DNA of 20,000 bases from an uncultured virus (IMG/VR IMGVR_UViG_3300006927_000005) (Duplodnaviria > Heunggongvirae > Uroviricota > Caudoviricetes), in IMG/VR virus record IMGVR_UViG_3300006927_000005, one strand, 5' to 3'. Both the position numbers and the translations under genes were made by a program. The notes under the pieces were generated by a model. It did no database searches, had not been told where the DNA came from, and saw only the letters and a program-made list of their open reading frames with translations. This document shows positions 823 through 15,153 of this stretch, one piece after another (the stretch's first letter is position 1; every line of letters starts with the position of its first letter).

Positions 823-3469
823 GGTCAATTTTAAAGAAATCAAATAGATCTGTATTTACAGCTTGACCGGGACGAAAAGACTTCCAATTTACATTTTCAT
901 AAAATCTGTCTATTACACTATAGACAATTTTTTCAAACATTTTCTCATAGTCAATTTTAAAGTCTTTTTTAAATTCTTTAGGTAAATCATATTTAAATCC
1001 TAATGAACTTATGCCAAACTTATTAGGAGTTATTGTATAGAAATATCGAATTTTATCACCGGAGCTAATATTTTCATGTTTACTTGAAATATTATAGTAA
1101 TCTAAAAGTTTATTATAATATATAGACGACTTGACGTGAATTGGAGTTCCCTTTTTCACTTTCCAATCTTTTGTGTGAATACTGTATTTTTCGTAATCTC
1201 TTACTCCCATAACAAACGCAATGTCTTTTATAGGTAATGACTTAAAAATTTCATATGTCTCTTCAAAGATTTCATTTGTAGATTTTTGATTTTCGGTCGT
1301 AATCATATGTTCGATAATTTTTTTAACATATGGCTTGATTGGCCCGGGCATTGTGGTTCGAACCACCTCAACACCAGTATATTTAAATTTATTACATACA
1401 ATTCCTTCGTCGTCTAATTTATGTAGTACGTATCGTTTTTTTTGTAAAAATAATCCTCTATCACAAATCGACTCTCTTTTAAAAACAAACCTAGGATCAT
1501 TAGTTAGTAGTGTTTCTTTTGCCCATTTTTTAATATGCACGTTTAAATCGTCTTCTATATCTTGAACAAGATTATATACCTCTTCATTAATATTATTGTC
1601 CTCATGTAAAGATACTCCCATATGATCGAGTAAAGGAGTAATAGTACAATATAAACTATCTGTGTCATTATACAGGATTGGATCGGATTTTTCGATATCT
1701 TTATCAGTTAAATTAGTTTTTCTTTTAATATAATTTCTTAAAATAATATTACTTTGTTTTATGACGTCACGACCAGTTAATGTAATTGACCGTGCAATAT
1801 CTCCATCCGCCATAGCAGAGTTTTTATTACCAAAATACCCATAAATACGGTTAATAAGAATTTTTAATGTAAATTGCCCAATCCAAAGTTGATCAATCTT
1901 ATATTGTGTGTTTGTAATTTTTTTCTCCAATTTAATCTTGTTGTCTTTATTTTTCTCTTTTTTAAGTTGGAGAGATAATTGGTGTTTTTTTTCACGAGCT
2001 TTATTCCATTGTTCTTTTTTCTGTGATCTTCTTTTATAGAAGTGCTCTGTAATACGCGGAAAAACTCCTTTCACTTTTTGTGAAAAAAGCTTTTTTGCTC
2101 TCGTGACTGCTATTTCATTTTTAGTGCACCACTTGTTAAAATCCCCGTAAGACATCTCAATATCTTTGTTATTTACTGTCTTTATATATACTTTACCGTT
2201 ATCAGTACCAACAATGCTTCCTACTTTAGTTTCTGGGCTTAAGTTAAGAGTTATCATGACACTAGGGTATAGGGAATTAGCATCAAATGATATAATATTC
2301 TCCTGAAACCCACGTTTTGGTTCACTTACATATGCACCTTCGTATTTCCCAGATTGATCGGCATCTTTTATAAAAGTTGGAATGACACGTGGCGGGTCTG
2401 ACTTTCTTGCTTCGACAATGGCCCTACCGTTTACAGTGCTAATAGTACCGAGAGCAGCGTTAAATGGTGTTAGCCCTATGTATGACAGCATTCTTGCTAA
2501 GTCCATATACATAAGCTTAGCTTCAAGCTTTACTAACAGTCTCACATCGTGGATGTTATAGTCTACAAACTTGTCCCAATTGTCAATAGACAGTGTCGCA
2601 AGGTTAGTTTCTCCTATATCTACCTTGTTCTCTCCTAGTTCTATGTGAGCTATGTTATCTAGCTTATAACTGTCCTTCATCCCCGGACTGAAGGTTTTAT
2701 ACACATCGAGATAATCTAACATTGATACCCCCTCAACCACGTATTTCGATGTTTGCTTACCAAAATTACCGCGATACACTCGTTGATAAATTGGCTTCAT
2801 AATTTCATCATGAACAGGTGAAAATAGGCGCGTAGTATCTTCTCCTAGTACATTTCTAACTCGGTTAATTACATATGGAATATCAAAAGTCTCACTAGCC
2901 CACCCTGATAAAATATCTGGACGTTCTTTACAATAAAAGTCTAAAAATTTTTGTAATAAGTCTGTTTCATTCTTGCAATGTACATATTTTACATCATCTG
3001 TTTTTGGTTTATATTTGTTAATTCCCCATGTAAAATACATTTTTTCTACAGTATCGTAGACTGTGATTACATTGACCATATGACTCGCTTCTTCCGGTTT
3101 TGGAAACTCATCCGGGGAATATGTTTCAATATCAAAGAACCATATTTTTAGTGGAAATTTACTAAAATTATCTGTTTCGTTTATTTGCCAAAATCTATCA
3201 ACTAAAAATTGCTGGTACGGGGAAATATTTTCATAAATTTTATGATCATTAAGATCTTCAATTTTTCTTCTTCTATCTAGTTCACTGTTAGAAGCAATCC
3301 TGCGTAATTTTGTACCGTATAATGATATTGCATCTTGACGGTTTGAATTTGTCTCACAATAGAAATATGGCTGATATGGGCAATCAGTTTCAATTCTATT
3401 TCCCTCCTCATCCCATGTGTAGAGCCGCATTACACGCTGGTTTGGTATGTATGCTAAATTTCTATACAC
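812..3469 (-). CDS. gp43: Family B DNA polymerase, T4 gp43-like
   Basis: Exo I FFDIET, Exo II GWASETFDIPY, Exo III YNIHDV, motif A SFDANSLYPS, motif B KILINRIYG, motif C YNDTDS, KKRY, C-terminal clamp-binding-like DLFDFF. GTG start. Confidence 0.97.
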   Translation of the reverse strand: MYRNLAYIPNQRVMRLYTWDEEGNRIETDCPYQPYFYCETNSNRQDAISLYGTKLRRIASNSELDRRRKIEDLNDHKIYENISPYQQFLVDRFWQINETDNFSKFPLKIWFFDIETYSPDEFPKPEEASHMVNVITVYDTVEKMYFTWGINKYKPKTDDVKYVHCKNETDLLQKFLDFYCKERPDILSGWASETFDIPYVINRVRNVLGEDTTRLFSPVHDEIMKPIYQRVYRGNFGKQTSKYVVEGVSMLDYLDVYKTFSPGMKDSYKLDNIAHIELGENKVDIGETNLATLSIDNWDKFVDYNIHDVRLLVKLEAKLMYMDLARMLSYIGLTPFNAALGTISTVNGRAIVEARKSDPPRVIPTFIKDADQSGKYEGAYVSEPKRGFQENIISFDANSLYPSVMITLNLSPETKVGSIVGTDNGKVYIKTVNNKDIEMSYGDFNKWCTKNEIAVTRAKKLFSQKVKGVFPRITEHFYKRRSQKKEQWNKAREKKHQLSLQLKKEKNKDNKIKLEKKITNTQYKIDQLWIGQFTLKILINRIYGYFGNKNSAMADGDIARSITLTGRDVIKQSNIILRNYIKRKTNLTDKDIEKSDPILYNDTDSLYCTITPLLDHMGVSLHEDNNINEEVYNLVQDIEDDLNVHIKKWAKETLLTNDPRFVFKRESICDRGLFLQKKRYVLHKLDDEGIVCNKFKYTGVEVVRTTMPGPIKPYVKKIIEHMITTENQKSTNEIFEETYEIFKSLPIKDIAFVMGVRDYEKYSIHTKDWKVKKGTPIHVKSSIYYNKLLDYYNISSKHENISSGDKIRYFYTITPNKFGISSLGFKYDLPKEFKKDFKIDYEKMFEKIVYSVIDRFYENVNWKSFRPGQAVNTDLFDFFKIDLAN

Positions 3470-3504: not shown

Positions 3505-4733
3505 CTGATTTCGTTTTTTAGATTAATTAATTTTCGGCGTTTATCTCCATATGGAAATGAGTAAAGTTCAGTATAGAAATCAATATTATCTTCCATCCAT
3601 TTATTCTTCATATAATCACGAGCCTTTTTAACTTCCTTAATATATTTTTTATAATCTTTAGTTAAGTATTCTATTTTATTTACTAAGTCATCCCCAGTTT
3701 TAAATTTATGAAATGCGGTTTCATATGTACATAAATCCTGACAAATACATGGTATTCCGAAAGCACAAGATTCAATAAATTTTAAATTACTCTTAGCTTT
3801 ATTAAAAATACTATCTTCTAACGGTGCGTAAAAAAGAGTTGGATTAAAGCTATTAATATATTCTGGATAATCGACAAGATTTGTCCATGTCCAGTATTCA
3901 ATTTTTTTTGTATGAACTAAATCTCTAAGAGATAGAGGAAATCCTCCTACAAAAACCCATGTAAATTTATCTACAGTTTTTCTTATTGTATCAATGATGT
4001 GATGGAAGTCGTCTCGTTGTCCGACTTTGTTATCAACGTCAAAATGCGCACCACTTCCGCAATAAACAATCCGAGGTTTGCTTTTATATTTTTGATAATT
4101 TTCACGTATAGTATTAAAATCAAAAAATCGGTCCATCCAGAATTTAGGAATAAAATTAGGTATTACTGTAACATTATTATTGCCTGTTTTTTCTCTATAA
4201 TATTTTTGCATGAATTTATTTGTAACGGTAATTTCATCACACATTTGCATAATCTCCATGCTTGTTTTTCTGATATTTGGATCGTCGAAGGCAAATTTAA
4301 ATTTATTATAATTAGGAATATCTTCCTTAAAAATTATATCGTCAATTTCATATATAATTTTAAAGTTAAGCTCCTTCGATAGTTCTTTTAACCATTTTAT
4401 ATAACTAAATTGAGCGTCTGTAGCTTGTCTTTGTATGCGAACTGTTTTGACTCCTCTATAAAAATTTTTATCTCCTATCATTACAGTACCTCCTTGCACG
4501 TTTACCCTGTTACCATAACAATTAAGTAGTAACTCAGGCCATATCATCCTCCAATGACCACAGCCAGAATAGTCGGCATAAAAATTTAGAGCGCGTGGTA
4601 AATCTGGCGCCTTATGACCAGTCTGGCTCGTCGCTGTTTGGGGTGGGATAGGTAGAGCATTTACGAGCGGATTGTTTATTGACACCGGTGAGAATGGTAA
4701 TCGGTTTGTTGTATACTGAGACGGTGTAATCAT
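3501..4733 (-). CDS. Glycosyltransferase, GT-B fold (GT4-like)
   Basis: ADYSGCGHWRMIWP, YEIDD, DEITV, VIPNF and C-terminal APLEDSIFNKAKSNLKFIE motifs typical of phage GT-B enzymes. Confidence 0.8.
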   Translation of the reverse strand: MITPSQYTTNRLPFSPVSINNPLVNALPIPPQTATSQTGHKAPDLPRALNFYADYSGCGHWRMIWPELLLNCYGNRVNVQGGTVMIGDKNFYRGVKTVRIQRQATDAQFSYIKWLKELSKELNFKIIYEIDDIIFKEDIPNYNKFKFAFDDPNIRKTSMEIMQMCDEITVTNKFMQKYYREKTGNNNVTVIPNFIPKFWMDRFFDFNTIRENYQKYKSKPRIVYCGSGAHFDVDNKVGQRDDFHHIIDTIRKTVDKFTWVFVGGFPLSLRDLVHTKKIEYWTWTNLVDYPEYINSFNPTLFYAPLEDSIFNKAKSNLKFIESCAFGIPCICQDLCTYETAFHKFKTGDDLVNKIEYLTKDYKKYIKEVKKARDYMKNKWMEDNIDFYTELYSFPYGDKRRKLINLKNEIS

Positions 4734-8056: not shown

Positions 8057-9479
8057 GGTATTGCGTAAAATTATAATTTATATGTTCGCTGTCATATAAC
8101 GATAAACGCTGCTCTATATGACGTTGGCCATAACGTAAATTATCAGCGATATCAAAGATTATAAGCTCTTTCTTATCAATATGCAACCGAAGGCCTCGGC
8201 CTATACTTTGTATTATTTTAATTTTTGCTTTACCGCCGTTAGCAAATATTATATAATGTAAATTTTTTATATTAATACCTGTAGAAAATATTTTTGATAT
8301 AGCGACAACTACTATGTTATTTTGTTCCTCCATTAGGGTTTGTATTTTTTTACGTTCATCTACATCTACTTCCCCTCTAATAAAATATACTTGTTTACCT
8401 TTACAGGAATTGTGTAATATATTCATTAATATTTCACCATGCTCTATGTAATCAATTAATATTAATACATTGTTATCTAGTTTATTTGAAAGTTTTGCCA
8501 ATAGATTATTTCTGAAACAATTTTTACGTATAAATTCATTTTCCTGTAAATAATAAGCGTTAGAATTATTACCATGATATATTTCCGTTGAAGGTGTATC
8601 GTAATTTAATTCTAAAACATGAACCTTAGCTGGTACGACATATTTTTCTTTTCTTAATTCATGAGCTTTTTTTTCAAATAATTGAGGTCCTATTTTACCA
8701 TATATGTTCCATTTATCTAATAGCTCGGATGGTAAGGTCCCGGTAAATCCAAATCGATGAGATGTATCTATTTTTTTAAGAATGTTATTTATTTTATTTC
8801 CTTTTCTTACTTTATGTACTTCATCTACAATAAGAAAGTCTATATGCTTTATCCATGATATATCTTGCTTTGAGCTTTGTAAAATACCTAAATTAGCAAT
8901 AATAACATTGTTAGATAAATTTAATTTATTTTTTCCTGTATATATAGTAGTAGAAAAGGAAACATTGTATTGTTTAAAATCAGACATAGTTTGATTAACT
9001 AATCCTAGATCTGGAACTATAACTAGTCCTTTAAAATTTTTACTATAATTTTTGTAATAAAATTCTAATAACCCAGCCATTGTAAGAGTCTTGCCGCCGG
9101 CAGTCGCAAGGACTACTGTTCCTCTCCCTCTGTCAATGCATTTGTTAATTATATCTTGTTGATATTGTCTATACTCTAAACTTAAATTATAATCAATAAT
9201 ATTATCTTTACGTAATGTAGGTATTAGTGCGTTTTTTATTTCTTTTGAAAAATCAATTTTTATATCTTTCGTTTTACAGAATTTTGTAATTTCTATTAAT
9301 AATCCAATATCAGTTTTTCCTTGTTGAGTAATTACGTACGTGCGTTGTGGTACAAACCTGCCAAATCTTCTTTGAAAGTGTGCAGCTTCGTTTTTTACAC
9401 TAAAATGCTCTCTGATGATATCTAACTCAGGTCCCTCTAGTACTGCTTGAGAGTTTGAATTTAATGTTATATTGATCAT
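8025..9479 (-). CDS. uvsW: SF2 DNA helicase UvsW
   Basis: YRQYQ, ATAGGKT, DEVH, GFTGT and QSIGRGLR motifs; synteny with uvsY and gp55. Confidence 0.93.
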   Translation of the reverse strand: MINITLNSNSQAVLEGPELDIIREHFSVKNEAAHFQRRFGRFVPQRTYVITQQGKTDIGLLIEITKFCKTKDIKIDFSKEIKNALIPTLRKDNIIDYNLSLEYRQYQQDIINKCIDRGRGTVVLATAGGKTLTMAGLLEFYYKNYSKNFKGLVIVPDLGLVNQTMSDFKQYNVSFSTTIYTGKNKLNLSNNVIIANLGILQSSKQDISWIKHIDFLIVDEVHKVRKGNKINNILKKIDTSHRFGFTGTLPSELLDKWNIYGKIGPQLFEKKAHELRKEKYVVPAKVHVLELNYDTPSTEIYHGNNSNAYYLQENEFIRKNCFRNNLLAKLSNKLDNNVLILIDYIEHGEILMNILHNSCKGKQVYFIRGEVDVDERKKIQTLMEEQNNIVVVAISKIFSTGINIKNLHYIIFANGGKAKIKIIQSIGRGLRLHIDKKELIIFDIADNLRYGQRHIEQRLSLYDSEHINYNFTQYHEAQNKKEKT

Positions 9480-9880
9480 TGAGTCTCAAGCTTTATTAAT
9501 TCTACTAGATTTTTTATATCATTCGTAGCGAAGCTTATGTTTTTATATATATTTTCTAAGAAACTGATAATAAGTGTTTCATTGTCAATGTTTTGATCTA
9601 TAGTTTTTATTTCTTTTTTGTTTTGTACTGCCTTTTCTGCTATAGATCTATTTACTCGAACAGGTTCTTTATCCTGATAAGCGGTTACATATTCATTAAT
9701 AAGAGAAGAGCGTTTAAATTTAAACTTATTTAATTTAATTTTATGATTAATTAATCTTGCAGACCATTTATGCTTATTGGCGACTAATTGCTCTTGAGTG
9801 GAAGTTACTTCTAGTCTAGAAAGATTCGTATCTATCTTTGCTTCATCTAAATACTGATTGATAATATCACCAATCTCCAT
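9476..9880 (-). CDS. uvsY: Recombination mediator UvsY-like protein
   Basis: 134-aa helical protein (HKWS..., ...DIKNLVE) directly upstream of uvsW with ATGA overlap. Based on size, synteny and weak motif similarity. Confidence 0.7.
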   Translation of the reverse strand: MEIGDIINQYLDEAKIDTNLSRLEVTSTQEQLVANKHKWSARLINHKIKLNKFKFKRSSLINEYVTAYQDKEPVRVNRSIAEKAVQNKKEIKTIDQNIDNETLIISFLENIYKNISFATNDIKNLVELIKLETQ

Positions 9881-9925: not shown

Positions 9926-10765
9926 ATGAGTAATACTTTTGAGCACATGTTAAATAAAATTAACGAAGCTCAATTAATTCTAGATCCATGGCCGTATATA
10001 TTTATCAAGGAGTACACACCGGCGATGTTTTATAAGAAACTGTGTAATGAAACCACTAGTATACATCTTCAATTAGACTATGATAATTATACTGGAAGAA
10101 CGGAAGAAATTGGATGGCGACAAACAGAGGAAGTATCTAATACTTGGTACGATGTTTCCCCAGCGTCACTTAATTATGGTGGTGCAGTGTTACAGGAGTA
10201 TTGCGATATTGTTTCTAGTAAAGAGATACAGTCTGCTATTTCTCTTAAATTTGCTGATTTTCTGAAAAAATATGGTCATGTTAATTACGTTAATAAATCA
10301 CAAGATATAGTTGGTGTTGTAACATCATATGATGTTATAACTACAGGATGGAAATATCCAATACATTCTGAGATAAGGAAGAAGCTTTTTACTCATTTGC
10401 ATTATCTAGCAATTGAAGGTGATGATAAATCTATAGGAACACGTGTGTATCCTAATACAGGAAAAGGAAACTCATTAGATTATGATAAAGATTGCTTGAT
10501 GACGTTACCTTATCTTCCTAATAGTGCATTAATATTTTGTCCGAGTAATGTGAATGAACATAGAACTAATCATGCAGTATGTAATACATCTAAACAAACA
10601 AGATATAGAAGATCTCTTCACACATTCTATCACTGTGAGTTCCCAGCCCCGGCAATACATAAAGTAGATAAATGGGCGTTAATACCTGAAGATAAAAATT
10701 TAGGTTATTATTATTCTAATGAGAAGGAATATATGTATAACCGCTCTCGTATAGACTTAATTTAA
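9926..10765 (+). CDS. 2OG-Fe(II) oxygenase superfamily protein
   Basis: DPWPYIFI start, YPIHSE (HxE), [28 protein letters not shown]: jelly-roll pattern with H-x-E...H...R. Confidence 0.7.
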
Positions 10766-11395
10766 ATCTCTTACGAAATTATAGAATTCTTGTCTTGTAA
10801 GATCAGTTTTATCTAAGAAGGCCCCGGACATTCTAGCAGTTTTCATTGTACTATCATGCTTTACACCTCTTACACAAGCACACATATGATTAGCTTCTAC
10901 TAATACTGCTACACCGTTATTTTCATCACATACTTTATCTATATGTGTATGAATTTGCATAGTTAGGTTTTCTTGTACCTGAGGTCTTCTCGCAAACCAT
11001 TCAACAATTCTATTTAATTTACTTAAACCAATCACCTTACCATCTCTTCCAGGTATATAAGCTACATGCGCAACGCCAATAAACGGTAAATGATGATGCG
11101 AACAAAAGGAATGTACTGTAATATTACCTTGAAATACAATTCCATCGTATTTATCAATATTATCAAATGCAGTAATTTTAGGTGGCTCTGTATAACATCC
11201 TTCCGCTAAGTCATTTACAAATGCTTTAGCTACTCTCTTAGGTGTATTTGAGCTATTAGGATCATTTCTCCAGTCAAACCCTAGAGCATCCATATATTTT
11301 TCATATGCCGCCGCTGCATTATTAATAATGCTCTCTTTTTCTTCAGGAGTCCGTGGTTGGTTTTGATTGGCATATTGAAGTAAATCCTCATTCAT
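10757..11395 (-). CDS. folE: GTP cyclohydrolase I
   Basis: [47 protein letters not shown]. Confidence 0.96.
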
Positions 11396-11446: not shown

Positions 11447-12403
11447 ATGGATTACGTTATTTTAAATAATGGTTGTTCTTTTTCTGCAGATTGGTCCTTA
11501 CATCGTTACGGTTATGAGCGCCAGCCATTGCATCCGCGCCGCCAAGCTGATGCACCGGAGTCGCTGGGCGTTCACCCGAATGTGTACTACGCGCCCGGTG
11601 AGAAGAAGAAACTCTCCGATGCCCCTGGATCCGTGATCCGTTCGGATCAGTTTGGCTGGACTACATATTGTAAATACTTACCTGGAAAAATATATAATAT
11701 TGCGATGGGTGGTACAGGTATTGAGTCAGATAGATTAGCTAGTTTTATTAGTGATGTTGAAACCGGGCTCACGGACCGTAGGAACCTATATACATTTCAG
11801 GAGAATTTCGGTCCGACGGTACCGTCACCAAAGACCGGTGAGCCAAACTCAATACCTGCAGATCTTAAGGTAACACATTTTATTTATCAGCTACCATCAT
11901 TATGTCGGCAAGTCATGCACACAACATTAAATTATGAAGATTTTATAAAGGCACCTATAGGCCTCCGGGAGGCGTGGGAGGAGTATAGAAAATCTTTATC
12001 AGAACCGTATGATCATGCGGAAGAAAAACGTAAATGGAAAGATAGAGAAGATTTATGGCGTAATATTGCAGCAGAATCATCTAATTTAGACAAATACGTA
12101 ACAAAAGCATTAAATTCAATCCATGAAAGTGTAACCATGGTCCGGAAGAAATGGCCGGGTATAAAAATTATACTATTAAAATATGTACATTCACATGAAA
12201 ACAATACAGTAGCATATGTATTTAGTAAACTTTTTTATAAAAATGATATACGTAAGTACTGTGATGACAATAATGTCGCATATATATATGAAAAAAACTT
12301 TCATACCCATTGGTTTGCTGAGAATGGGCTGGCGAATGATCGACGGCACCCTAACGAAGCAGGAGCAAGACTTATAGCCAGTAAAATTAAAGAATATTTA
12401 TGA
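11447..12403 (+). CDS. SGNH/GDSL-like hydrolase (paralog 1) with two GC-rich in-frame insertions
   Basis: N-terminal NGCSFS, NIAMGGTG and C-terminal DRRHPNEAG motifs; aligns by eye to 13013..13729. Confidence 0.7.
   Translation: MDYVILNNGCSFSADWSLHRYGYERQPLHPRRQADAPESLGVHPNVYYAPGEKKKLSDAPGSVIRSDQFGWTTYCKYLPGKIYNIAMGGTGIESDRLASFISDVETGLTDRRNLYTFQENFGPTVPSPKTGEPNSIPADLKVTHFIYQLPSLCRQVMHTTLNYEDFIKAPIGLREAWEEYRKSLSEPYDHAEEKRKWKDREDLWRNIAAESSNLDKYVTKALNSIHESVTMVRKKWPGIKIILLKYVHSHENNTVAYVFSKLFYKNDIRKYCDDNNVAYIYEKNFHTHWFAENGLANDRRHPNEAGARLIASKIKEYL
11521..11659. repeat. GC-rich multi-stem inverted-repeat element inside CDS
   Basis: Outer stem CCAGCCA/TGGCTGG; inner TGCATC/GATGCA, CGGAG/CTCCG, GGGCG/CGCCC, TGATCC-GTTC-GGATCA. 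Hand count 95/160 G+C over 11501-11660. Confidence 0.6.
11766..11844. repeat. Second GC-rich multi-stem inverted-repeat element inside CDS
   Basis: Outer stem GGCTCAC/GTGAGCC; inner GGACCG/CGGTCC; 12-bp palindrome GACGGTACCGTC. Hand count 48/90 G+C over 11761-11850. Confidence 0.6.
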
Positions 12404-12519
12404 GAAAGATATGGTTTAAAATTAGAATTAGATGTGCGCAATTAAAGCAGTGGCTTTATTGTAAAATTAAAAGGATAAAAAACAAGCCGGATGATCCTAA
12501 TATATATCCTTTTTGGTAG
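12400..12519 (+). CDS. Small basic protein, 39 aa (MRKIWFKIRIRCAQLKQWLYCKIKRIKNKPDDPNIYPFW)
   Basis: Not in the ORF track; ATGA overlap with the upstream stop and fills the gap to the next promoter. Confidence 0.65.
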   Translation: MRKIWFKIRIRCAQLKQWLYCKIKRIKNKPDDPNIYPFW

Positions 12520-12523
12520 TTGA

Positions 12524-12531
12524 TATAAATA
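12524..12531 (+). promoter_or_regulatory. T4 late promoter consensus TATAAATA
   Basis: Exact match, 5 nt before ATG 12537; gp55 is encoded in the window. Confidence 0.7.
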
Positions 12532-12536
12532 ATTTT

Positions 12537-12707
12537 ATGAAATCTGTTTTATTATGTGGAGGTAAAGCCTGTTGTCCAACTCTTACGTTAATTGAAGATA
12601 AAAAAATAGTTCAAATTACAGATGATACTGGTAATATTGTTAAAATGGATATATCTCAAGCTCGATTAATCGATCAAGCTTTAAAGGATCTTGAGAAGGA
12701 GGAATAA
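12537..12707 (+). CDS. Small hypothetical protein with CGGKACCP motif (56 aa)
   Basis: ATG at 12537 preferred over the TTG at 12513 because it follows TATAAATA at the recurring 5-nt spacing. Confidence 0.7.
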   Translation: MKSVLLCGGKACCPTLTLIEDKKIVQITDDTGNIVKMDISQARLIDQALKDLEKEE

Positions 12708-12742
12708 TTATTTTTATTGATTTATTAGCGTGTATCGGTTTA

Positions 12743-13006
12743 ATGTTTATTCTTAAATACGGTACTATTCTTAATTTTCCACGGAAACTCATTTCAAAAA
12801 TATCTTTTATCAGAGAACTATTTAAGTGTAGTTTATGTTTAGGTTTTTGGACTGGTGTTATTGTGTATTTTGCTAGTAATAATAAGTATATATTATTACC
12901 TTTCGCGAGCGCAGGTGTATGTTGGATAATAGATAATTTTAATAACGTTTTACAGTCTCTTGAAATTGTAATAGATGAGTTTTTAAGAGACCATAAAGAC
13001 AAATGA
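12743..13006 (+). CDS. Small membrane protein with CxxC (ELFKCSLCLGFW), possibly DUF1360-like; true start may be 12707 or 12710
   Basis: Hydrophobic segments and CxxCxxFW motif; frame is open back to 12695 with AAGGAGG at 12696-12702. Confidence 0.65.
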   Translation: MFILKYGTILNFPRKLISKISFIRELFKCSLCLGFWTGVIVYFASNNKYILLPFASAGVCWIIDNFNNVLQSLEIVIDEFLRDHKDK

Positions 13007-13012
13007 GAATAT

Positions 13013-13729
13013 ATGAACTGGAAAGAGAGAGAAGAGTTATGGCGGATAGAAAAAGGTAAATATTGTATATTAAATAATGGGTGCTCTCATTCAGCAAAAA
13101 CTACATCTACTCGAACTTCTTATTGTGATTTTTTACCTGGAGATGTATATAATATTGCTACACCAAATTCTGCGATTCAATGTGATACATTAAGAGATTT
13201 TTTACATGAAAATAATGATACAATGTTCACACATTACATATATCAAATACCATCTCCGGTTAAGCAGTTACAATATCTAGGATTAAACGACAATGAACTT
13301 TCTGAAACACCTATGGCCATAGTAGCTGATGTACAGAAGCATATTAATATAATTTGTAATCATTATCGCACTCAAGCAAAGTCTCGTGGCACTTGGGAGT
13401 CCCGGATCACAAATCCTATAACTAAAATTATACTTTTACGGTATGAAGAAACTAAATATCCTCTCGTTTATGAACTTGGCAAAAAAGATGATCCACTCGA
13501 GTATTGGTTTTATATTTGCGTTAGATTTTTTGTGTCAACTTTTTATAAAGACTTATTAGATTTAAGACGTGGTTTCCATGGAACAAACTTTCATAATGTT
13601 AGATATATATATGAAAATGATTTTAATACGGAGCGGTTTAAAGCTAATGGGTGGGCTAATGATGAGTACGGTCATCCCAATGAAATAGGCGCTAAAGTAA
13701 TAGCTGATAAAATTAAGGAATATCTATAA
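13013..13729 (+). CDS. SGNH/GDSL-like hydrolase (paralog 2)
   Basis: ILNNGCSHS, YNIA, THYIYQIPS, DEYGHPNEIGAKVIADKIKEYL; shares these blocks with 11447..12403. Confidence 0.68.
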   Translation: MNWKEREELWRIEKGKYCILNNGCSHSAKTTSTRTSYCDFLPGDVYNIATPNSAIQCDTLRDFLHENNDTMFTHYIYQIPSPVKQLQYLGLNDNELSETPMAIVADVQKHINIICNHYRTQAKSRGTWESRITNPITKIILLRYEETKYPLVYELGKKDDPLEYWFYICVRFFVSTFYKDLLDLRRGFHGTNFHNVRYIYENDFNTERFKANGWANDEYGHPNEIGAKVIADKIKEYL

Positions 13730-13780: not shown

Positions 13781-14269
13781 ATGAGTTTTACCAGTACAAA
13801 AATCCTAGAACTTGGTAGTTGTGCATTTAGACAACCTAATGCGAAATCTCATTGTAGGTTTTTGCACGGATACAGATTAACAGCTAAGTTTTGGTTTGGA
13901 GCTAATCAATTAGATGGAAATAATTGGGGTGTAGATTTTGGGAGCCTTAGTCCTTTAAAAAAGCTCCTTCGAGATCAATTTGATCACACAACGGTTATAG
14001 ATAAAAATGATCCTTATATTGAGAGTTTTCAAGGTCTCAATGACGCTGATGTATTAGATTTGCGAGTAACGGATGGAGTCGGTATTGAAAAATTTGCTCA
14101 ATATTGCTTTAAAGTAGGTAACGACTTTATTAAAAAGGAATCTGAAGGTAGATGCTGGGTAGATAAAGTCGAAGTATTTGAACATGAAAACAATTCTGCT
14201 ATTTATACTGAAAATATAACTACCACTATGAGATTTGCTGATCCTGAAACCGGATACCAAAATGGGTAA
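13781..14269 (+). CDS. queD: 6-carboxytetrahydropterin synthase QueD/PTPS-like
   Basis: HCRFLHGY, VDFG, FDH, EKFA, VFEHENNSA; lies between folE and queE. Confidence 0.88.
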   Translation: MSFTSTKILELGSCAFRQPNAKSHCRFLHGYRLTAKFWFGANQLDGNNWGVDFGSLSPLKKLLRDQFDHTTVIDKNDPYIESFQGLNDADVLDLRVTDGVGIEKFAQYCFKVGNDFIKKESEGRCWVDKVEVFEHENNSAIYTENITTTMRFADPETGYQNG

Positions 14270-14417
14270 AGGAAGTAAAAGAAGAAAAGGAGAGAGTACA
14301 AGGCGTATTGTATCCAATTGGGACGAAATCGATTGGGGATATATAAAGTTTACTAAAGACGAAGAAGCCGATAAAAAGAAAGATGATCGAAAAAGAATCA
14401 ACGATAATGAAAGCTGA
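14262..14417 (+). CDS. Small hypothetical protein (MGKGSKRR...NWDEIDW, 51 aa)
   Basis: ATG at 14262 overlaps the queD end and the ORF bridges to queE. Confidence 0.6.
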   Translation: MGKGSKRRKGESTRRIVSNWDEIDWGYIKFTKDEEADKKKDDRKRINDNES

Positions 14418-15153
14418 CGGGACTGAGACAATATACTTATCCGACGATAAGATATTTTATACAGTTGAAGGAGAGGGAGAGTTCATGGGCTACCCCTCTG
14501 TGTTTATGCGTCTTTCGATGTGTAATTTAACATGTCAGGGGTTCGCGACAGCAGACTCACCGCACGGTTGTGATAGTTATATTTCCTGGAGTGTAAAAAA
14601 TAAGCTTACTCTTAAAGAAGTTTTCGACCTCTTTAAAAGTAGTGGATATAAAGATCATTTATACAACGGTGCTATATTAAAAATTACTGGAGGTGAGCCT
14701 CTAGTACAACAAAAGGCGCTATTAAAGTTTATAGAGTACATGGAGGTTGAATGGGGCTGGATTCCTCGGATAGATTTTGAAACTAACGCAACTATTCTAC
14801 CAGATAAAGAATGGACAAGAGTCGGTGCCACTTTTACTACTTCCCCTAAAATGAGTAATAATGGAGATCCAGTGGATAGGCGCTATAAGCGTAATGTTTT
14901 AGATTGGCACTCTATAAACGGATCTGGTTTTAAGTTTGTCATTGATAAGGAGTCAGATATAGACGAGGTTTTCGGTAAATATATTACACCGTTTGATATT
15001 CCTACAGGTAGAGTATGGTTAATGCCGTGTTGCGGTAGCAGAGAGGAGCATATAGAAAAGGCTCCCATGGTTGCTGAACTGGCTAAGAGGTATAGGTTTA
15101 ATTTTAGTCCTAGATTACATTTATTAATATGGGATATGGCCTTAAAAGTATAG
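14383..15153 (+). CDS. queE: 7-carboxy-7-deazaguanine synthase QueE (radical SAM); start may be 14407
   Basis: IFYTVEGEG, PSVFMRLSMCNLTC...CDS, ITGGEP, FETN, SPK, KFVI, VWLMP, PRLH. Confidence 0.93.
   Translation: MIEKESTIMKADGTETIYLSDDKIFYTVEGEGEFMGYPSVFMRLSMCNLTCQGFATADSPHGCDSYISWSVKNKLTLKEVFDLFKSSGYKDHLYNGAILKITGGEPLVQQKALLKFIEYMEVEWGWIPRIDFETNATILPDKEWTRVGATFTTSPKMSNNGDPVDRRYKRNVLDWHSINGSGFKFVIDKESDIDEVFGKYITPFDIPTGRVWLMPCCGSREEHIEKAPMVAELAKRYRFNFSPRLHLLIWDMALKV

Follow-up and report, generated by a model that had tools for sequence, protein, structure and literature searches.

A GC-rich segment after the putative catalytic serine of an SGNH-like protein in a T4-like marine phage is probably a variable coding loop

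Lineage-specific disordered insertions occur at the indel-tolerant surface loops of enzymes, and hypervariable accessory genes are found in the plastic regions of T4-like phage genomes. The subject of this work is a GC-rich segment inside a gene for an SGNH-like protein of 318 aa, carried by a 20,000-nucleotide stretch of DNA from an uncultured virus of the Caudoviricetes (IMG/VR record IMGVR_UViG_3300006927_000005), the whole of which is referred to here as the window. The original prediction had described the segment as a cloverleaf-like, structured insertion element, possibly a mobile palindromic element, a spliced or bypassed segment, or an embedded noncoding RNA. Two described systems are closest to such an element. 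Rickettsia palindromic elements (RPEs) are multi-copy families; R. conorii has 44 insertions belonging to ten of them, and every family codes for a conserved peptide of its own (PMC10969869). The gap of T4 gene 60 has 50 nt, starts with a conserved stop or hungry codon, shows AU-rich sequence around a Shine-Dalgarno and is non-coding, being part of a mobile element that targets topoisomerase genes (10.1101/2022.08.31.505936).

Compared with these systems, the window segment is similar to an RPE in its size (about 140-150 bp), its palindromic look, its in-frame position in an enzyme gene and its apparent compatibility with the protein fold, but differs in that no second copy of it and no related peptide were found. 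It is in frame and read through like RPEs and transposable elements of the miniature inverted-repeat kind (MITEs), the 318-codon open reading frame (ORF) being open and its translation presumed, whereas terminal inverted repeats of its own and a precise empty site were not found. With T4 gene 60 it has in common that a T4-like phage gene holds an extra stretch with hairpins; unlike the gene-60 gap as described, its frame is open, it is three times longer, it has 59% GC instead of being AU-rich and its host gene is unrelated. The likeness to indel-tolerant enzyme loops lies in an in-frame loop of 7-86 residues among relatives, predicted disorder and highly conserved flanking genes, and the one difference is a strong GC bias at the insert's synonymous sites (z score 7.1), which ordinary drift at 31% GC does not predict. 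The segment is most probably a translated, disordered, hypervariable surface loop that follows the Ser motif of a fast-evolving phage SGNH-like protein, and not a structured or mobile element. The gene, its loop and its paralog are arranged as follows.

11447..12403, plus strand: SGNH-like gene, 318 aa, a single uninterrupted ORF with no in-frame stop
11477-11479, plus strand: S11, putative nucleophile, placed by the position of the G9-C10-S11 motif
11489..11662, plus strand: loop 1, variable and predicted to be disordered; the conserved motifs GCSFSA and TYC bound its 58 codons
11516..11653, plus strand: probable GC-rich, lineage-specific core of loop 1 (46 codons, flanked by the anchors HRYG and GW), with approximate boundaries from the alignment with L019 (loop DWSLSRHGKIHGWA) and L017
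12338-12340, plus strand: D298, placed by a D-x-x-H motif
12347-12349, plus strand: H301, placed by the D-x-x-H motif
13013..13729, plus strand: paralog (BLASTP E 2e-22 to the 318-aa protein), with a 7-codon loop of ordinary composition

S11, D298 and H301 do not vary in any of the 16 family sequences aligned and, from their motif positions, would form the putative catalytic triad; in the same alignment N84 is invariant and G89 and G91 are nearly so, which makes them candidates for the block III Asn and block II Gly of the oxyanion hole. Like the SGNH/GDSL hydrolases, among them acetyl-xylan esterases and GDSL lipases, the protein has an N-terminal G-x-S, a C-terminal D-x-x-H and a predicted alpha/beta core, with the block I Ser matched by S11 and the block V Asp-x-x-His by D298 and H301; it differs in reading G-C-S where these enzymes have the G-D-S motif. 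The Pfam family Lipase_GDSL_2 (PF13472) scored 16.9 bits on the 318-aa protein, under the gathering cutoff of 32.9, and the protein is therefore called SGNH-like and not a member of the family. The paralog gave no PF13472 match, the 318-aa protein gave no NCBIfam match, and a sequence profile search of the PDB returned only noise (best E 0.044). An AlphaFold2 model, built from the 16-sequence alignment, presented a confident alpha/beta core, with a mean predicted local distance difference test (pLDDT) score of 68.9 and a predicted template modelling score (pTM) of 0.71; residues 19-68 had pLDDT <50 and no secondary structure assigned. The best Foldseek match to this model, and the only one at E<=0.001, was 4dev_A (E 5.3e-4, template modelling scores 0.39/0.34), and the listed top 50 matches were nearly all solved SGNH/GDSL esterases.

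Between GCS[FH]SA and [ST]YC the 318-aa gene has 58 codons and the paralog 7, confirming the in-frame insertion that had been read from the comparison of the two genes, and the insert directly follows G9-C10-S11, as had also been noted. Loop length was compared across 14 non-redundant family genes taken from 24 loci; left out were L014 and L015 (equal to L013), L018 (frameshifted), L021 and L022 (protein identical to that of L020), L024 (equal to L023), L027 (equal to L026), and L029, L030 and L032 (near-identical to L028). Loop 1 was found to have 7, 8, 12, 13, 14, 17, 18, 29, 31, 36, 38, 42, 58 or 86 codons in these genes, in frame in every one. The relatives with short loops have the same anchors, DWS..R.G and GW, so that the extra part in the window can be placed at about 11516-11653.

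The content of the loop is as variable as its length. In the relative L017, whose protein is 73% identical, the flanks align at high identity and the loop DNA is unalignable; its 42 codons are unrelated to those of the window except at the ends, and they fold with a z score of -1.20. Between the window and L017, the core of the gene showed a synonymous divergence (dS) of 0.28 and a ratio of nonsynonymous to synonymous divergence (dN/dS) of 0.28, whereas loop 1 had a dN of 0.83 with dS saturated and not computable. Since this divergence is far above the neutral expectation at a dS of 0.28, the content of loop 1 appears to have been replaced and not to have drifted. The closest relative, represented by L012 and L016, has almost identical DNA on both sides of the loop; its loop lacks 30 nt (net) and carries a 114-nt in-frame insertion, both changes being multiples of three. 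The L016 allele was found again in the independent run X17, and a flank-anchored scan of Joint Genome Institute (JGI) metagenome contigs found two, one identical to the window and one of the L016 type. One contig of run X15 has 22 nt in place of 175 nt of the loop (net -51 codons, in frame); it was considered as an empty site and rejected, its flank being only ~82% identical, as of another family member. An empty-site allele nearly identical to the window was not encountered; what distinguishes the close relative is indels within the loop. On a wider scale, FolE, encoded next to the SGNH-like gene, was 96-97% identical to its counterparts in five loci (tblastn local matches), and the SGNH-like protein only 34-43% identical in the same loci; because of this, the SGNH-like gene may be described as a hypervariable slot flanked by conserved genes, apparently evolving much faster than its neighbours.

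The composition of the segment is unusual for this DNA. The G+C content of about 59% at 11501-11660 was confirmed by count (95/160, 0.594), and the window as a whole, with 30.8% GC, has its GC peak here (100-nt maximum 0.64, mean 0.308, standard deviation 0.068). When 54 loop-1 codons were re-coded with the codon usage of 17 other window genes in 2000 simulations, a GC content of 0.436 was expected and 0.586 found (z 7.2), and at third codon positions (GC3) 0.22 was expected and 0.61 found (z 7.1), a value reached in 0 of the 2000 simulations. The conserved parts of the SGNH-like gene have typical GC3 values (0.25 vs 0.23 expected and 0.14 vs 0.22 expected). The 30-codon stretch at 11555-11644, with a GC3 of 0.73, ranks top among 20 window ORFs, the runner-up having 0.57. 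About half of the GC excess of loop 1 is due to its Pro, Arg, Gly and Ala content and about half to atypical synonymous codons. Other family loops have GC3 values of 0.0-0.50, the loop of the window lineage alone being so extreme; in the paralog, which was equated with row L036 of the family table because the translations read alike, GC3 is 0.0 in the loop and 0.20 in the remainder. The sequence is not an assembly artefact, since three IMG/VR contigs and one JGI contig are identical to it and at least half of the words sampled from it are present in each of 18 sequencing runs (17 studies). None of the runs listed as containing it is an RNA run; two presumed RNA runs contain a small fraction of these words, and X19, the one examined, had no coverage of the insert.

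The cloverleaf itself was drawn with the following elements.

11521..11659: proposed cloverleaf, with the closing stem 11521-27/11653-59
11529-34/11549-54: arm 1, TGCATC/GATGCA
11556-60/11614-18, enclosing 11566-70/11592-96: arm 2, CGGAG/CTCCG around GGGCG/CGCCC
11634-39/11644-49: third arm, TGATCC-GTTC-GGATCA

The paired ends and the three arms are all present as drawn, each of the ten named arm sequences occurs once, and the minimum free energy fold of 11521-11659 reproduces the drawing. Nevertheless, the fold was no better than chance allows. For the RNA of 11501-11670 the z score was -1.49 on the plus strand (16/200 shuffles as good) and -1.12 on the minus strand (28/200), and for 11498-11662 it was -1.81 (9/200). 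Similarly, the loop fold had z scores of -1.40 when synonymous codons were permuted (24/300 as good), -1.37 when codon order was shuffled (28/300), -1.68 when synonymous codons were resampled within their GC3 class (15/300) and -1.87 with DNA parameters (11/200). As a control, 165 nt of ordinary core of the same gene (12000-12164) gave -1.73, with 9/200 as good. A folding score near zero relative to shuffles had been named as grounds for abandoning the element; significance was lacking throughout, as that expectation implied, but the scores, at -1.1 to -1.9, are near zero only in a loose sense. Perfect inverted repeats of at least 6 nt numbered 5 in the insert, against 2.4 in dinucleotide shuffles (P 0.11) and 4.3 under synonymous-codon permutation (P 0.45), and template switching, as indicated by inverted-repeat enrichment, was rejected because the enrichment in the insert is not significant. 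The hairpins of loop 1 are no more than chance would give in a 59% GC sequence of that length.

The relatives do not preserve the drawing either. In the L012/L016 loop the missing 30 nt include the 5' arms of the closing stem and of arm 1, the 114-nt insertion falls in the middle of arm 2, and two further arms each have one pair disrupted by a point change. When L012 was placed on the drawn cloverleaf, 13 of the 29 pairs were lost to the gap, 2 were broken, 1 became G-U and 0 were compensated. For the L016 loop, folding was poorer than in shuffled versions of it (z +0.63). TGGCTGG, which forms the 3' side of the closing stem, coincides with conserved F-G-W codons that relatives without the insert also have; it is therefore sequence of the host gene and not the terminus of an element. 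With presence and absence among orthologs and covariation thus pointing away from it, and with the control of the same gene scoring alike, the structured element of the original prediction was not upheld.

A second GC-rich insertion in the same gene was found to hold a stronger fold than the proposed cloverleaf.

11747..11863, plus strand: insertion 2 relative to the paralog, 39 codons, in frame, GC-rich, GC3 0.44 vs 0.20 expected (z 3.7)
11715..11858: long hairpin enclosing insertion 2, its base formed by a perfect inverted repeat of 12 bp (11715-26 / 11847-58), the longest stem in 11498-11863 (P 0.000-0.003)

The fold of 11710-11865 had a z score of -3.12, with 0/200 shuffles as good. Even so, 13 of the 43 pairs of this hairpin are broken in one or both relatives and 0 are compensated, and its left arm lies within the codons of the family-conserved GGTGIES motif. 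Insertion 2 has a dN/dS of 0.27 against L017, matching the 0.28 of the core, and for this reason it appears to be translated and constrained as protein.

These results bear on four other explanations of the segment. A role at the nucleic-acid level, in which the GC-rich codons would be kept for an mRNA structure, for rare G/C-ending codons that slow ribosomes after the first strand, or for a site of DNA recombination or replication, would agree with the GC3 excess of loop 1, the slightly negative lean of every fold test and the fold of the neighbouring insertion 2; it is nevertheless improbable, given that no fold test was significant for the loop 1 segment, that the close relative loses 13 of 29 pairs and has two more broken with no compensation, that the insertion-2 hairpin also has uncompensated broken pairs in relatives, and that neither an Rfam match nor a promoter or terminator pattern was found in the segment. 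Over the whole window Rfam gave 0 matches at gathering score, and at E<=10 only three chance-level rows of small nucleolar and long noncoding RNAs, none inside 11504-11693. A tRNA or other cloverleaf RNA was rejected, with 0 genes from ARAGORN and no Rfam match in the segment, and the suggestion of an embedded noncoding RNA was not supported. Excision from the message or skipping by the ribosome, whether by an intron, a bypass of the T4 gene-60 type or an intein, is extremely improbable: the frame is open throughout and nothing needs skipping, all natural variants are in frame, no Rfam intron family was matched and no intein/Hint domain was found in Pfam at E<=0.01. That the segment lies within a T4-like phage gene and has local hairpins would suit such a mechanism, but with 138-174 nt and a high GC content it is unlike the gene-60 gap as its source describes it, and the spliced or bypassed segment of the original prediction was not supported.

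Insertion of a mobile palindromic element (RPE, MITE or GC cluster) that kept the frame of a tolerant loop and is now read through would account for a GC-rich segment with atypical codon usage in an AT-rich genome, for the nested inverted repeats and for a site that tolerates insertions. It is regarded as quite improbable, since its supposed 3' terminus lies in conserved host codons, a near-identical empty-site allele was not seen and no second copy was detected in any of the collections searched. These were G001, a 34-kb IMG/VR fragment of the same phage and the nearest record, 100% identical to the window over the SGNH-like gene; the window and the other loci compared (blastn-short and tblastx); five related records of 45-132 kb, of which 0 had a match at E<=10; and the GenBank phages, with no match to the segment DNA. 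An exact 24-mer of the segment was found nowhere in IMG/VR outside the three contigs identical to the window. The absence of further copies holds for these sequences, a complete genome not being among them, and is not proven. Hairpins recur in IMG/VR, the 16-nt hairpin of the window 18 times and the 17-nt hairpin of L017 12 times, but as often as chance would give; a recurring micro-element was rejected, as the non-self matches have unrelated flanks and a local GC of 0.31-0.65 (mostly 0.4-0.65). A template repeat of a diversity-generating retroelement was not seen either, there being no second copy of the loop in the 34 kb or the window, with reverse transcriptase not searched for.

Recent capture of DNA foreign to the phage, with the host, a different phage or a micro-element that forms hairpins as its source, in a lineage that swaps whole loop cassettes beside the active site, is unlikely, although it is the reading suggested by a loop that is non-homologous between relatives at a core dS of 0.28, by the deviation of both inserts, and not the core, from phage codon usage, and by the contrast in identity between FolE and the SGNH-like gene at this locus. 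The searches for a donor gave little. Plasmids yielded a single 57-nt match (78% identity, E 0.5), and among 596 Gb of genomes scanned for exact 21-mers there was one match, extending over 26/27 nt with unrelated flanks, which is about the chance expectation. At the protein level, phmmer with the sense loop peptide against 1.84 billion representative proteins gave one match (E 5.6e-5), to a mucin-like low-complexity repeat protein of 3494 aa matched seven times, which was judged compositional and rejected as a homolog. On the antisense strand the in-phase frame has no stop within the insert, and its GC3 (0.69) is gene-like; its peptide matched no protein at E<=1 among longer proteins.

Several observations weigh against the reading of the segment as an ordinary protein loop. 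Its translation is presumed from the sequence, and the pair counts in loop 1 rest on two close relatives. All loop fold tests came out slightly better than the shuffle mean (5-14% of shuffles as good), so that weak structure may be present in loop 1. The GC3 excess is not accounted for by a protein-level reading alone, and a donor was not found. Between the window and L016, the core has 14 nonsynonymous and 3 synonymous changes (dN/dS ~1.2) and the aligned loop codons have 8.5 and 1.5, numbers from which little can be concluded; the core values may indicate that, over short times, constraint is weak and selection relaxed or diversifying. In addition, L018 equals L017 across the gene except for a frameshifting deletion of 56 nt (about 3001-3010 vs L017:3010-3065), located in another variable region at ~codons 170-189 of the L017 gene, that leaves the gene broken; the allele may be in decay, or else the assembly is at fault.

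For the variable-loop reading, which is still preferred, a course of events may be proposed. Loop 1 would consist of 58 residues, some 46 of them extra, placed directly after the G-C-S nucleophile motif, at a site that would tolerate almost any length or sequence and so admit in-frame insertions, deletions and replacement of the whole segment. Because it starts 4-8 residues after S11, the loop is probably a flexible flap near the active-site entrance. Its present GC-rich version would have arrived as non-homologous, GC-richer DNA from a source not traced, and not by point mutation.

GC-rich coding stretches were also noted elsewhere in the lineage. The 122-kb relative G002 (L044-L049) has some 25 patches in which GC over 100 nt is 0.55 or higher (maximum 0.74), for example at 116399-116688, 4399-4630 and 39168-39592; most of them belong to long ORFs, where they code for low-complexity stretches rich in Pro, Gly, Ala and Thr, with GC3 only modestly raised. 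Judging by composition, disordered-looking GC-rich coding islands seem to be common in this lineage, the window loop being an outlier in degree.

The window is a fragment of a T4-like marine phage, with genes for a family-B DNA polymerase, a gp46/47-like SbcCD, a UvsW-like helicase, PhoH and glycosyltransferases. Around the SGNH-like gene and its paralog it carries three 7-deazaguanine precursor genes.

10757-11395, minus strand: folE
13781-14269: queD
14383-15153: queE

Such precursor genes (folE and/or queD/queE) were found at most 2.5 kb from an SGNH-like family gene in 12/12 related loci, in three of which, as in the window, the SGNH-like gene has folE on one side and queD/queE on the other, and several of the related phages have two SGNH-like paralogs. 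QueC and transglycosylase had no Pfam match among the 19 window ORFs scanned, ORFs 2-427, 429-788 and 9476-9880 lying outside the scan; the deazaguanine pathway may end at 7-carboxy-7-deazaguanine, or further genes may lie outside the window. The 279-aa protein of 9926-10765 had no match in Pfam, PHROG or NCBIfam. Between the paralogs, at 12513-13006, there are two small conserved ORFs, one of 64 aa with a weak PHROG match to an Arc-like repressor (E 0.004) and one of 87 aa that is hydrophobic-looking; both recur in 9/12 related loci at 69-100% identity.

The proposal of a new class of structured in-frame element is thus not supported, loop 1 being most probably an ordinary variable loop, and the case illustrates that, where the genome is AT-rich, an island of high GC can look cloverleaf-like by eye without being a cloverleaf. 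The codon anomaly of loop 1 is real and unexplained, and its GC-rich synonymous sites, together with a loop non-homologous to that of the 73%-identical relative, point to segment replacement from a source not traced. The two inserts, with their atypical synonymous composition (z 7.1 and 3.7), and the replacement of the loop between close relatives form a small case of phage accessory proteins gaining loops. The SGNH-like gene family near the deazaguanine genes is uncharacterised, and its placement there may hint at a role in DNA-modification chemistry or in host conflict.

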